From a virus (Duplodnaviria > Heunggongvirae > Uroviricota > Caudoviricetes): a stretch of DNA of 64,000 nt. Position numbers: made by a program. The stretch lies in the IMG/VR virus record IMGVR_UViG_2718218360_000008; one strand, 5' to 3'. Below, piece after piece: positions 36,001-42,000 of the stretch; positions within the stretch are counted from its first letter, which is position 1, and each line of letters starts with the position of its first letter.

Positions 36001-39000
36001 GGGAAATCGACCTGACGGCGCAGGGCGGTGAGCGGTATTTTTTCTGCAATGAGCTGAATGAAAAAGGGGAGGCGGTTACCTGGCAGGGGCGGCAATATCA
36101 GGCATACCCGATTGACGGCAGCGGTTTTGAGATGAACGGGAAGGGCAGCAGTGCCAGACCGTCGCTGACGGTGTCCAATCTTTTCGGCCTTGTCACCGGG
36201 ATGGCGGAGGACCTGCAGAGCCTGGTGGGGGCCACGGTGGTCCGCCGCCGGGTGTATGCCCGTTTTCTGGATGCGGTGAATTTTGTGGCGGGCAATCCGG
36301 AAGCGGACCCGGAGCAGGAGCTGAGCGACCGCTGGGTGGTGGAGCAGATGTCAGAGCTGACGGCCATGACAGCCTCGTTTGTGCTGGCCACACCGACCGA
36401 GACGGACGGGGCGCTGTTTCCCGGTCGCATTATGCTGGCGAACACCTGTATGTGGGATTACCGGGGAGATGAATGCGGGTATAACGGTCCTGCGGTGGCG
36501 GATGAGTTCGATAAACCCACCACGGATATCCGTAAGGACAGATGCAGCAAGTGCATGCGCGGGTGTGAGATGCGCGGCATGGTGGCTAATTTTGGCGGTT
36601 TCCTTTCCATTAATAAACTTTCGCAGTAAATCCCGGTTTATGACACAGACTGAATCAGCGATTCTGGCGCATGCCCGGCGGTGTGCGCCTGCGGAGTCGT
36701 GCGGCTTCGTGATAAGCACGCCGGAGGGGGAGTGGTATATCCCTTGTGTGAATATTTCCGCAGAGCCGGAGGCGTATTTTCGTATTGCACCGGAAGACTG
36801 GCTGCGGGCAGAGATGCAGGGGGAGATTGTGGCACTGGTCCACAGCCATCCCGGTGGCCTGCCCTGGCTGAGCGAGGCCGACCGGCGGCTGCAGATAAAA
36901 AGTGCACTGTCCTGGTGGCTGGTCTGCCGGGGGGAAATTCATAAATTCCGCTGTGTGCCACATCTGACAGGACGGCGCTTTGAGCACGGGGTGACGGACT
37001 GTTACACCCTGTTCCGGGATGCATACCATCTGGCGGGGATAACGCTGCCGGATTTTGTGCGTGAGGATGACTGGTGGCGCAACGGTCAGAACCTGTACCT
37101 GGACAATATGGAGGCCACCGGCTTTTGCCGGGTGTCCCTGTCCCGTGCACAGGCGGGCGATATCCTGCTGTGCTGCTTTGGCGCATCGGTGGCCAATCAT
37201 GCCGCCATTTACTGCGGCAACGGTGAACTGCTTCACCATCTGCCTGAACAACTGAGTAAACGGGAGAGGTATTCCGAAAAATGGCAACGACGAACGCATT
37301 CTGTCTGGCGTCACCGCCACTGGCACGCATCTGCCTTCACGGGGATTTACAACGATTTGGCCGCCGCCTCAGCCTGTATGTGAACACGGCAGCGGAAGCC
37401 ATCCGGGCGCTGTCGTTACAGGTGCCGGGATTCCGCCGTCAGATGAACGAAGGCTGGTACCAGATACGTATTCGCGGTGAGGACACGGCACCGGAGGCGG
37501 TGTACGCCCGTCTTCACGAACCTCTGGGTGAGGGGGCGGTCATCCATATTGTGCCGCGACTGGCCGGAGCCGGAAAGGGCGGACTGCAGATTGTGCTGGG
37601 GGCGGCGGCCATCGTGGGGTCGTTCTTCACGGCCGGGGCATCGATGGCGTTATGGGGTTCAGCCCTGGCAGCCGGTGGTTTTTCTGCCACCACGATGCTG
37701 TTTTCACTGGGTGCCAGCATGATACTGGGCGGTGTGGCCCAGATGCTGGCACCGAAGGCAAAAACACCGGATTACCGCGCAACGGATAACGGTAAACAGA
37801 ACACGTATTTTTCGTCACTGGATAACATGATTGCCCAGGGGAACCCGATGCCGGTGCCTTATGGTGAAATGCTGGTTGGTTCACGACGGATATCCCAGGA
37901 CATCAGCACCCGTGATGAGGGCGGAGACGGGAAAGTGGTGGTTATCGGGCGGCAGGGGTAAAGCATAAAAAAATCCCGCAGTGTATGGAGGCTGCGGGAA
38001 CAGAAAATGAAGATTAACCACAGGGAGTTTTGTTTTTATTGGCCCGAAAAAACTGTAACGCCCGGGAATGATATCTGCCACGGGGGCGTACAGAAAATGT
38101 GAAGAAATTCAGAAATTTTATTCCGTCATGACACAGGCACCCTCCGGGGTGCCTGTCGTTTTTGGGGCATAAACAGATTCAGACATCAGACAGGAGAGGG
38201 GGACAGAGTGGGTAAAGGTGGCGGCAAGGCGCACACGCCGGTAGAGGCAAAGGACAATCTTAAGTCCACGCAGATGATGAGCGTGATTGATGCGATTGGT
38301 GAAGGGCCGATTGAAGGTCCGGTGAAGGGGCTGCAGAGTATTCTGGTGAACAAAACCCCGCTGACGGACACGGACGGTAATCCCGTGATACACGGTGTGA
38401 CTGCGGTCTGGCGTGCCGGGGAGCAGGAGCAGACACCACCGGAAGGCTTTGAGTCCTCCGGAGCTGAAACCGCACTGGGCGTGGAAGTGACGAAGGCAAA
38501 GCCGGTGACGCGCACCATTACGTCCGCGAACATTGACCGCCTGCGGGTCACCTTCGGGGTGCAGTCACTGTTGGAGACCACCTCAAAGGGCGACCGTAAT
38601 CACTCTTCTGTCCGACTGCTGATTCAGTTGCAGCGTAACGGTAACTGGGTGACGGAAAAGGATGTCACCATTAACGGCAAGACCACCTCGCAGTTTCTGG
38701 CGTCGGTGATTCTGGATAATCTGCCTGAGCGGCCCTTTAACATCCGGATGGTCCGGGAGACAGCGGACAGCACCTCGGACCAGCTGCAGAATAAGACGCT
38801 CTGGTCGTCATACACCGAAATCATCGATGTGAAACAGTGCTACCCGAACACGGCCATTGTGGGGCTGCAGGTGGATGCGGAGCAGTTTGGCGGTCAGCAG
38901 ATGACGGTGAACTACCATATCCGCGGTCGCATCATCCAGGTACCGTCAAACTATGACCCGGAAAAACGCACGTACAGCGGCATCTGGGACGGCAGCCTGA

Positions 39001-42000
39001 AACCGGCATACAGCAACAACCCGGCCTGGTGCCTGTGGGACATGCTGACTCACCCGCGCTACGGCATGGGAAAACGCCTGGGGGCGGCGGATGTGGACAA
39101 GTGGGCGCTGTATGCCATTGCGCAGTACTGCGACCAGATGGTCCCTGATGGTTTCGGGGGCACAGAGCCGCGGATGACCTTTAATGCGTACCTGTCACAA
39201 CAGCGTAAGGCGTGGGACGTTCTCAGTGATTTCTGCTCGGCGATGCGCTGTATGCCGGTATGGAACGGCCAGACGCTGACGTTCGTTCAGGACAGTCCGT
39301 CGGATGTGGTGTGGCCGTACACCAACAGTGATGTGGTGGTGGATGATAACGGCGTGGGGTTTCGCTACAGCTTCAGCGCCCTGAAGGACCGCCACACGGC
39401 GGTGGAGGTGAATTACACCGACCCGCAGAACGGCTGGCAGACCTCCACGGAACTGGTGGAAGACCCGGAAGCCATACTGCGCTACGGGCGCAACCTGCTG
39501 AAGATGGATGCGTTCGGCTGTACCAGTCGCGGTCAGGCCCACCGTGCCGGGCTGTGGGTGATAAAGACCGGACTGCTGGAAACGCAGACGGTGGATTTCA
39601 CGCTCGGGTCACAGGGGCTGCGTCACACACCCGGTGACATTATTGAAATCTGTGATAACGACTATGCCGGGACCATGACCGGCGGACGTATCCTGTCCAT
39701 CGATGCCGCCAGCCGCACCCTGACACTGGACCGTGAGGTGACCCTGCCGGAGACCGGTGCCGCCACGGTGAACCTGATTAACGGCAGCGGTAAGCCGGTG
39801 AGCGTGGCCATCACTGCACACCCCGCGCCGGACCGGATACAGGTCAGCACCCTGCCGGATGGCGTGGAGACATACGGTGTGTGGGGGCTCTCCCTGCCGT
39901 CACTGCGTCGTCGCCTGTTCCGCTGTGTCTCCATCCGGGAAAACACGGACGGCACCTTTGCCATCACGGCAGTGCAGCACGTACCGGAAAAAGAAGCCAT
40001 CGTGGATAACGGGGCGCACTTTGACGGCGACCAGAGCGGCACCCTGAACAGCGTCATCCCTCCGGCAGTGCAGCACCTGACGGTGGAGGTGAGTGCAGCT
40101 GACAGCCAGTATCTGGCGCAGGCGAAATGGGACACGCCGCGGGTGGTGAAGGGCGTGCGCTTCAGTCTGCGCCTGACCAGTGGAAGCGGTCAGGACAGCC
40201 GTCTGGTGACCACCGCCATCACTGCGGATACAGAGCATCGTTTCAGTGGTCTGCCGCTCGGGGAATACACCCTGACAGTCAGGGCAATTAACAGTTATGG
40301 CCAGCAGGGGGAACCGGCCATCACCACCTTCCGGATTAACGCGCCAGCAAAACCCGCCACCATTGAACTGACGCCGGGGTATTTTCAGATAACGGCGGTA
40401 CCGGTGCTGGCGGTGTATGACCCGACGGTGCAGTTTGAGTTCTGGTTTTCGGAAAAACGCATCACGAACACGGCACAGGTGGAAAAATCTGCCCGTTATC
40501 TGGGGAGCGGCAGTCAGTGGACTGTCCAGGGAAGCCGGATTAAGCCGGGGACGGATTTCTGGTTTTACGTGCGCAGCGTCAACCTGGTGGGGAAATCTGC
40601 GTTTGTGGAAGTCAGCGGGCAGCCCAGCAATGATGGTGAAGGGTATCTGGAATTTTTCCGGGAAAAAATAGGAAAACTGCATCTGGCTCAGGGGCTATGG
40701 GAGCTGATAGACAACAGCCAGCTTGCGGATGAGATGGCGGAGATGAAGACCACCATCACGGAAACCCGCAATGAAATCACACAGACGGTCAGTAAAACGC
40801 TGGAAGACCAGAGCGCCACTATCAGCAGATACAGCGCGTGCAGAAGGACACAAATGATGACCTGGCTGCGCTGTACATGCTGAAGGTTCAAAAAACGAAA
40901 GACGGCATTCCCTATGTGGCCGGGATTGGTGCAGGGATTGAGGATACTGATGGCCAGCCACTGAGCAACATACTGCTGCTGGCTGACCGTATCGCGATGA
41001 TAAATCCGGAGAGCGGCAACAGCACGCCGTTATTTGTGGCGCAGGGGAATCAGCTGTTCATGAACGACGTGTTCCTGAAGCGACTGTTTGCGGTGAGCAT
41101 CACCTCATCCGGCAATCCTCCGACGTTTTCCCTGACGCCGGACGGGCGACTGACGGCGAAAAATGCGGATATCAGTGGCAGTGTGAATGCGAACTCAGGG
41201 ACGCTCAACAACGTCACGATTAATGAGAACTGTCAGATTAAGGGGAAACTGTCAGCCAACCAGATTGAAGGGATATTGTCAAAACGGTCAGCAAGTCTTT
41301 CCCCCGCACGAGCACTTATGCCAGTGGCACCATCACGGTAAGAATCAGTGATGATCAGAAGTTTGACCGGCAGGTCATGATACCGCCAGTGTTATTCCGC
41401 GGTGGTAAGCATGAGAATTTCAACAGTAATAACCAACAGTCATACTGGTATTCAACCTGCCGGTTAAGAGTGACCCGCAATGGTCAGGAGATTTTTAATC
41501 AGTCCACGACGGATGCTCAGGGCGTATTTTCCTCAGTTATAGATATGCCTGCCGGACAGGGGACGCTGACACTGACATTCACCGTATCTTCATCAGGAGC
41601 GAATAACTGGACACCAACAACCAGTATCAGCGATCTGCTGGTTGTGGTGATGAAAAAATCCACAGCAGGTATCAGTATCAGCTGAATTTTATAACCCAGA
41701 ACGGGCGTCCAGAAATGACGCCTTTTTTATTGCAGAAAAGCGAGAGGTAATTATGCGTAAACTTTATGCCGCCATTTTGTCCGCAGCCATCTGTCTGGCC
41801 GTATCCGGCGCGCCTGCATGGGCGTCTGAGCAGCAGGCCACGCTGAGCGCGGGGTATCTTCATGCCCGGACGAGCGCTCCCGGTAGCGATAATCTTAACG
41901 GGATTAACGTGAAATACCGTTATGAGTTTACGGACACACTGGGGCTGGTGACGTCATTCAGCTATGCAGGAGACAGGAATCGCCAGCTTACCCGTTACAG

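Follow-up and report, generated by a model that had tools for sequence, protein, structure and literature searches.

J gene of prophage 1 and its frameshifts

The window, which is the whole 64,000-nucleotide stretch of virus record IMGVR_UViG_2718218360_000008 that was analysed, carries in prophage 1 a tail tip attachment gene J of the lambda type, which the sequence divides into three pieces lying in different frames (Table 1). The first fragment consisted of J residues 1-871 followed by 20 out-of-frame residues, and the protein as written was split at residues 872 and 1022. All six gpJ domains scored above the Pfam cut-offs and were spread across the three fragments. Lambda_tail_I was located 5' of J (37281-37958) and Ail_Lom 3' of it (41753-42349), so that J was placed between I and the lom and tail fibre genes of the operon, as it is in annotated relatives. 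The other prophage 1 structural genes, from terminase to tail fibre, were uninterrupted ORFs of the expected length and there was no indel relative to FRIK2455 over 3757-40821, so the first-pass annotation was right to single out J as the only structural gene of prophage 1 that is not intact.

Table 1. Features of J, its second copy and the neighbouring junction in the window
Feature	Position	Strand	Basis or content
Lambda-type tail tip attachment gene J, prophage 1, three out-of-frame pieces	38208..41685	+	ORFs, six gpJ Pfam domains, 8IYK_J match
J fragment 1, 891 aa, frame 0	38208..40883	+	FNIII-A_GpJ, Phage-tail_3, Ig_J, Ig_J_second
J fragment 2, 167 aa, frame 2	40838..41341	+	Central tail fibre domain (Phage_Tail_Tip)
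J fragment 3, 102 aa, frame 1	41377..41685	+	Receptor-binding domain at the C-terminus (Ig_GpJ_C, profile positions 38-135)
Deletion site 1, one base missing (A-type J has A, O-type J has T)	40822..40823	+	Alignment with copy 2
Deletion site 2, one base missing (A-type J has C, O111 L014 J has T)	41271..41272	+	Alignment with copy 2
Seam of alternating A-type and O-type J haplotypes, 7 switches	40805..41718	+	
Private C insertion immediately 3' of an A/O polymorphic column	41709..41709	+	Window T then C, i.e. both alleles
Junction of tail-fibre module end and nucleotide 16 of a lysozyme gene	44072..44073	+	No homology at join
J copy 2, ended by window edge	60572..64000	+	Broken by private deletions of 1 bp (61136, 61194, 61332)

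Alignment with the second J copy of the window placed two 1-bp gaps in copy 1, which bears out the earlier reading that two single-base frameshifts split the gene. The first-pass annotation had placed the breaks near 40,815 and 41,275 and the additional bases of copy 2 at 63,204 and 63,624; both breaks and both bases are present, but these positions were off by 8 and 4 nt in copy 1 and by 20 and 10 nt in copy 2. The context of site 1 is CTAT^CAGC, where copy 2 has an A at 63184, and that of site 2 is GAAGG^GATA, where copy 2 has a C at 63634. Across the two deletions the window reads, as written, CTATCAGC and GAAGGGATA. Homopolymers are the commonest context of long-read errors and neither J deletion sits in one. 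An uninterrupted ORF of ~1130-1160 codons was absent from the sequence as written and was recovered once the A and the C were put back, giving a 3480-bp ORF, free of internal stops over its 1159 codons, whose product differed from WP_000514788.1 (strain 7784) by a single residue change, D867N.

Repaired J aligned over its full length with lambda gpJ (PDB 8IYK chain J; 1705.6 bits, E = 0), with which it had in common the six Pfam domains and the gene order I, J, lom and tail fibre, while differing in length (1159 aa against 1132 aa in lambda) and in a C-terminal fibre and receptor-binding region that is the O157 prophage allele. The DNA of window J was 99.7-99.8% identical to J of O157:H7 lambdoid prophages (WP_000514788.1, strain 7784; WP_064261933.1, FRIK2455). 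These genes are 3480 bp long and intact, whereas window J is without two bases and carries five O-type substitutions, as defined below.

Beyond the presence of overlapping ORFs nothing favoured programmed recoding, in which J would be made via two +1 ribosomal frameshifts or transcriptional slippage. There is no slippery run at either deletion context, J is single-frame in all relatives and we know of no recoding in lambda gpJ. With slippery site and conservation both absent, programmed frameshifting of J was rejected as having next to no chance of being correct.

Search for the deletions in other sequences

Probes of 80 nt across each deletion site were compared with 5,426 complete E. coli genomes. 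The deletion was found at none of the 2,868 matching places for site 1 and none of the 3,853 for site 2, and the best matches always carried the extra base (695 genomes for site 1 and 1,852 for site 2). Neither deletion was found in the viral or species-representative collections; the deleted k-mers of both sites had no match in viral_contigs, where the intact site 2 k-mer had 69, and the deleted k-mer of site 2 had none in genome_contigs. An exact look-up of seven frameshift-specific products among ~15 billion proteins found none. The top J matches were all 3480 bp compared with 3478 in the window, and those to the 901-nt 3' stretch of J were all 903 bp. A lesion common to close strains or prophages, a feature of decay, was therefore seen in 0 of the 5,426 complete genomes.

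A 102-aa C-terminal ORF like that of the window was seen on 83 contigs. It was considered as a sign of a shared deletion at 41271 and rejected, since other assemblies carry different lesions. The broken J genes of CB9615 (CP001846), CP027544, CP043011 and others have this same ORF, with lesions that change a C5 tract (window 41301-41305) to C4 or C6 or, in CB9615, a 19-bp deletion, and none of these genes had the deletions of the window. The differently broken J genes of other assemblies, and the location of the J deletions outside homopolymers, were counted against an artefact.

Genuine, very recent and strain-private pseudogenisation by two independent 1-bp deletions, with the mosaic 3' end described below arising by real recombination of prophage J genes, is unlikely. 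Defective prophages and broken J genes are known in related genomes, lambdoid tail genes are naturally mosaic and, the J deletions apart, 37 kb of prophage 1 are clean. However, neither lesion occurred in the 152 records whose J is at least 99% identical, nor in any other genome, and with at most ~6 substitutions per 40 kb, and an assumed natural indel-to-substitution ratio of ~1:10, only ~0.05 indels would be expected in J (P of 2 or more ~0.001). Were decay true, J would lack its central fibre as well as its receptor-binding domain and the prophage would no longer make adsorbing virions.

Copy number of J and the mosaic 3' end

Copy 2 of J was broken at positions other than those of copy 1, as claimed beforehand, by the three private deletions given in Table 1. 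The two copies differed by just 5 substitutions across 38856-41637 and at 23 sites across 38,219-38,855. The site 1 probe matched a median of 5 and a maximum of 9 places per genome, and in O157:H7 records it had at most 9 matching places and the site 2 probe 4-6; genomes of this kind thus hold several near-identical copies of the J region.

Two J haplotypes were distinguished at the 3' end, an A-type (FRIK2455, strain 7784 and window copy 2) and an O-type (O111:H8 L014 and PV15-279). The informative sites of window J read, in order, A A O O A (deletion) A O A O O A A (deletion) O O O, so that the haplotype switches seven times within ~900 bp, and five O-type substitutions lie at 40805-41119. 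A natural allele matching this stretch was not found, and even the closest among 10,808 places in the database had 4 mismatches and 2 gaps. Of the aligned columns 3.7% are polymorphic between A-type and O-type, and both deleted bases fell on such columns (P ~0.0014). Two features of a mixed-copy artefact were accordingly present, namely an interleaved haplotype without a natural match and deletions at inter-copy polymorphic columns. The same observations tell against the decay of J proposed above, as seven switches in 900 bp are unlike a crossover and both deletions fall on columns that vary between copies.

Private indels across the window

In the 41.5 kb over which no substitution separates the window from its nearest relatives, the window carries 22 private indels of one base each. 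Positions 1-25000 had four private 1-bp indels and no substitutions relative to strain 2-6-2, 44073-44653 had five deletions and no substitutions, and 45550-61446 had thirteen private 1-bp indels and no private substitutions, with terminase, gpI, J and other genes broken. Four independent reference genomes compared with one another over the same 19.9 kb differed by 8-73 substitutions and no indels. Substitutions proportionate to or exceeding the indels, as decay would leave, were not seen in the window, and private indels without substitutions in the rest of the window further argue against decay of J in particular. A mismatch-repair mutator background was also considered and rejected, as substitutions would rise too and none was seen beside the 22 indels.

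The first-pass annotation had likened the pattern to assembly error in collapsed repeats, with genuine decay as a possibility. The pattern in J agrees with this, but indel errors were not confined to the J repeat, being located also at 700-3756 and throughout 44.2-61.3 kb. The clustering of the indels may be due to repeat copy number or to coverage. The uneven error rate, with 37 kb of prophage 1 free of indels, was counted against the artefact reading.

There is a small chance that the consensus errors were random, resulting from low coverage or from long reads left unpolished, and had nothing to do with repeats, J being struck at the window-wide rate. The window-wide rate of 0.53 private indels per kb predicts 1.8 in J, most of the indels at 45.5-61.3 kb shorten homopolymers, and five 1-bp deletions within 313 bp after the 44072/44073 junction resemble a poorly covered contig end. 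Such random error would leave unexplained the interleaved haplotype, the location of the J deletions and the 41709 insertion at or beside polymorphic columns, and the indel-free 37 kb of prophage 1 directly upstream.

Origin of the J frameshifts

Both J frameshifts are very probably consensus errors in the deposited sequence rather than mutations, for which the sequence comparisons make a strong case short of proof. The earlier leaning towards assembly error gained support from the private deletions, the indels without substitutions, the interleaved haplotypes and the deletions on polymorphic columns; the last two together form the pattern of a consensus called on reads from mixed J copies. 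The genome would hold several near-identical J genes, and over the last 900 bp reads from at least two of them, one A-type and one O-type, appear to have been pooled when the sequence was assembled or polished. The consensus would then flip haplotype site by site, and at three A/O columns it would have lost the base twice (40822/3 and 41271/2) and retained both alternatives once (41709). In the organism, J most likely encodes a complete lambda-type tip attachment protein of 1159 aa.

Residual indels of long-read assemblies linger in repeats where short-read alignment is unreliable, according to passages of the Polypolish report (PMC8812927), and residual indel errors of such assemblies pseudogenise genes, according to passages of the Kastor report (PMC12007338). 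The window resembles the repeat errors of long-read and hybrid assemblies in these passages in that its private 1-bp indels are mostly deletions, often in homopolymers, and are substitution-free, gene-fragmenting and lingering in multi-copy prophage. In contrast to homopolymer miscounting, the J deletions lie at inter-copy variable columns, which points to a mixed-copy consensus.

It is about as unlikely as the strain-private decay considered above that the deletions are real products of recombination between A-type and O-type J genes, in which patchy heteroduplex repair made the mosaic and lost two mismatched bases. Under such recombination a tail-tip-less prophage would be fused to the tail end of another prophage. 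That heteroduplex mismatch repair could in principle yield a patchy mosaic was counted against the artefact reading.

From 1 to 44072 the window ran collinear with the prophage of FRIK2455, and 3' of J the sequence follows the tail end of another prophage. The seam in J is probably a repeat-induced misjoin of two different prophage tails, with the O157 prophage beside ompW on its 5' side and, on its 3' side, a tail end that belongs to a different prophage. The mixing of reads, the misjoin and the platform used for sequencing are inferences. The 44072/44073 junction was found in 0 of the 5,426 complete E. coli genomes, and its sequence was not found in genome_contigs. The original EDL933 sequence was considered as an origin of the window and gained no support, as neither the 3' allele of J nor the junction matched a complete RefSeq genome. 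A Campbell-type event inserting a circularised segment of prophage 2 into J was not supported, as the two switch points are at differing J coordinates (~nt 875 and ~nt 2600) and the window ends at 64000.

Implications

The main value of the finding is in quality control. The J stretch and most of 44-64 kb are unfit for inferring prophage decay, the receptor specificity of J or pseudogene counts. The analysis also gives a reusable test without reads, which asks whether private indels fall on inter-copy variable columns and whether the local haplotype interleaves the repeat copies. If the deletions were real, the window would hold one more defective O157-type prophage, which is a common thing. 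Most likely, J of prophage 1 is a well-known gene whose apparent split reflects how the sequence was built.

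The tail tip gene J as written and after repair

Three consecutive open reading frames, each in a different frame, fill 38208-41685 on the + strand, and taken together they carry the six gpJ Pfam domains. A domain search placed Lambda_tail_I upstream and Ail/Lom downstream of the gene.

Fragments of J in prophage 1 and the Pfam domains found in each
Feature	Position	Strand	Frame	Length	Pfam domains
J fragment 1 ORF	38208-40883	+	own frame	891 aa	FNIII-A_GpJ, Phage-tail_3, Ig_J, Ig_J_second
J fragment 2 ORF	40838-41341	+	own frame	167 aa	Phage_Tail_Tip
J fragment 3 ORF	41377-41685	+	own frame	102 aa	Ig_GpJ_C

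Comparison of the window with itself gave a repeat pair (33120-41637 and 55497-64000, 97.2% identity), the second member of which includes a second J (copy 2) cut off by the window end. When the copies were aligned, the prophage 1 gene (copy 1) had a gap after 40822 (site 1, CTAT^CAGC), where copy 2 has an A at 63184, and another after 41271 (site 2, GAAGG^GATA), where copy 2 has a C at 63634. These two 1-bp gaps and the three reading frames confirm the pair of frameshifts proposed in the first-pass annotation, which had also assigned an extra base to copy 2 at both sites; its coordinates were correct to 4-20 nt rather than exact. As it had likewise claimed, copy 2 is broken at other positions, by separate 1-bp deletions at 61136, 61194 and 61332, and J is the sole structural gene of prophage 1 that is not intact. 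Putting the two bases back restored an ORF of 1159 codons with no internal stops, whose product matched lambda gpJ (PDB 8IYK chain J, 1705.6 bits) and differed from WP_000514788.1, the strain 7784 J, by a single residue, D867N.

The deletions are private to the window

Sharing was assessed with 80-nt probes spanning each site, which matched 2,868 places (site 1) and 3,853 places (site 2) across 5,426 complete E. coli genomes, none of which contained the deleted form of either site; the best matches were 81 nt with a gap and all below 99% identity. The top full-length J matches were all 3480 bp relative to 3478 in the window, and those to the last 901 nt of the J region were all 903 bp. The deleted site-2 k-mer had no matches in genome_contigs and the deleted k-mers of both sites had none in viral_contigs, where the intact site-2 k-mer matched 69 times. 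Programmed frameshifting was excluded because a slippery sequence and conservation were both absent.

Among approximately 15 billion proteins, neither the fragment 1 product nor that of fragment 2 was present; the 102-aa fragment 3 was recorded on 83 contigs. A shared site-2 deletion was considered for the fragment 3 record and rejected, as the other assemblies have different lesions. A C5 tract near the J 3' end (41301-41305; 63664-63668 in copy 2), intact in the window, occurs as C4 or C6 in several public assemblies, among them CP043011, two prophages of CP027544 and a number of drafts, while O55:H7 CB9615 has a 19-bp deletion close to it, and all of these forms yield the same 102-aa C-terminal ORF. 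Either assemblies err repeatedly at this tract or the site is genuinely hypermutable.

A haplotype seam within J

Two natural haplotypes of the J 3' end were distinguished, the A-type carried by FRIK2455, strain 7784 and window copy 2, and the O-type by O111:H8 L014, O157:H7 PV15-279 and L013. The informative sites of copy 1 between 40697 and 41718 read, in order, A A O O A [deletion] A O A O O A A [deletion] O O O. The haplotype thus switches seven times over approximately 900 bp, and no database allele was nearer to this 3' end than 4 mismatches and 2 gaps. Each deletion falls on a column that is polymorphic between the A- and O-types (A versus T at site 1, C versus T at site 2); such columns make up 3.7% of the 8,612 aligned, so the chance of both deletions doing so is about 0.0014. 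A third private indel, an extra C at 41709, lies right after a polymorphic column, such that the window reads T then C, or both alleles. Real private decay of J is improbable, as it would need two independent deletions in an otherwise almost unchanged prophage, both on sites polymorphic between the copies and inside a seven-switch mosaic.

The region 3757-40821 differed from FRIK2455 by 6 substitutions and no indels, while 41699-44072, which holds lom and the tail fibre, tracks the tail end of the O-type with a single substitution relative to L014, and FRIK2455 has dozens of mismatches to the window from 41699 on. J is thus the point where the sequence changes prophage. The copies form a reciprocal mosaic, copy 1 being O157-type until approximately 40.8 kb and O111-type from there to the tail fibre, lom included, and copy 2 being O111-type until 61446 and then O157-type in J; no substitutions separate the copies over 38856-40804. 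This mosaic could result from prophage recombination or gene conversion, a circular segment inserted into J, or one consensus for both copies.

Private indels across the window

The first 25 kb had no substitutions relative to strain 2-6-2. The left end of prophage 1, from the integrase remnant to dicB, has private single-base indels at 700, 3604, 3625 and 3756 (three deletions and one insertion), which 3/3 O157:H7 references contradicted. For 44073-64000, four independent genomes were each exactly 19,943 bp and differed among themselves by 8-73 substitutions and no indels; against these concordant references the window had 29 private indel columns (44215-61332). Five deletions and no substitutions fell in 44073-44653, and 13 private 1-bp indels and no private substitutions in 45550-61446. 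These indels, which mostly shorten homopolymers, break lysozyme, large terminase (twice), a DUF2190 gene, T, tape measure, I (twice) and J (three times), and the whole 44215-61332 region looks unpolished.

In total, 22 indels and no substitutions occurred across 41.5 kb. Natural changes are assumed to be indels in about 1 in 11 cases, and given that share the probability of this outcome is approximately 1e-23. A mutator background was rejected because substitutions would also rise. Random low-coverage error hitting J would account for the indel rate (0.53 per kb, or 1.8 expected in J) but leaves the seam in J unexplained. The two J frameshifts are most likely consensus artefacts, judging from the sequence comparisons, and may have arisen when reads of different near-identical J copies were mixed in assembly or polishing. 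The assembly error first suggested for J is supported by the private lesions, by an excess of indels with no substitutions beside them, by an interleaved haplotype and by deletions that fall on polymorphic columns; read mixing, the sequencing platform and a misjoin are what we infer. In broad agreement with this, accounts of long-read assemblies describe leftover indels in repeats that outlast short-read polishing (PMC8812927) and indel errors that split genes (PMC12007338).

The RefSeq assembly of strain 2-6-2 (L028) has private G-run deletions at window-equivalent 18792 and 19371, which cause two genes of the same prophage, holin and lysozyme, to look like pseudogenes, and similar indel artefacts thus exist in other public assemblies.

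Prophage context and the 44072/44073 junction

E. coli O157:H7 FRIK2455 has a lambdoid prophage, near the ompW remnant and the trp operon, that is collinear with window 1-44072 at 99.8% identity. Its tape measure gene (L002 34745-37357) is annotated with an internal stop and is an unbroken 871-codon ORF in the window (32990-35605); the two sequences differ at 34298. The tail-fibre protein at 42417-43730 (437 aa, collagen-like GP repeats) appears to be a widely shared module, listed in 455 index blocks and identical in many different prophages, including those at prfC and smpB sites, in O111:H8 and other strains.

The late region of a second prophage, from lysozyme to J, occupies window 44073-64000 and is best matched by a prfC-adjacent prophage in O111:H8 strains. 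At 44072/44073 the conserved tail-fibre module end of prophage 1 is joined, with no homology, to nucleotide 16 of the lysozyme gene, which leaves prophage 2 without an integrase, early region or holin. This junction occurred in 0 of 5,426 complete E. coli genomes, and the only seeming carrier, H31, was rejected, being a normal prophage whose separate pieces were grouped by the search. Five single-base deletions lie within the first 313 bp past the junction. The junction is probably a misjoin, a concatenation of contigs or a contig end with poor support, though it may be a real strain-specific deletion.

Interrupted at residues 872 and 1022, the J product as written would be without its central fibre and receptor-binding domain. 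Most likely the split gene does not reflect any real biology, and the finding is an ordinary one.
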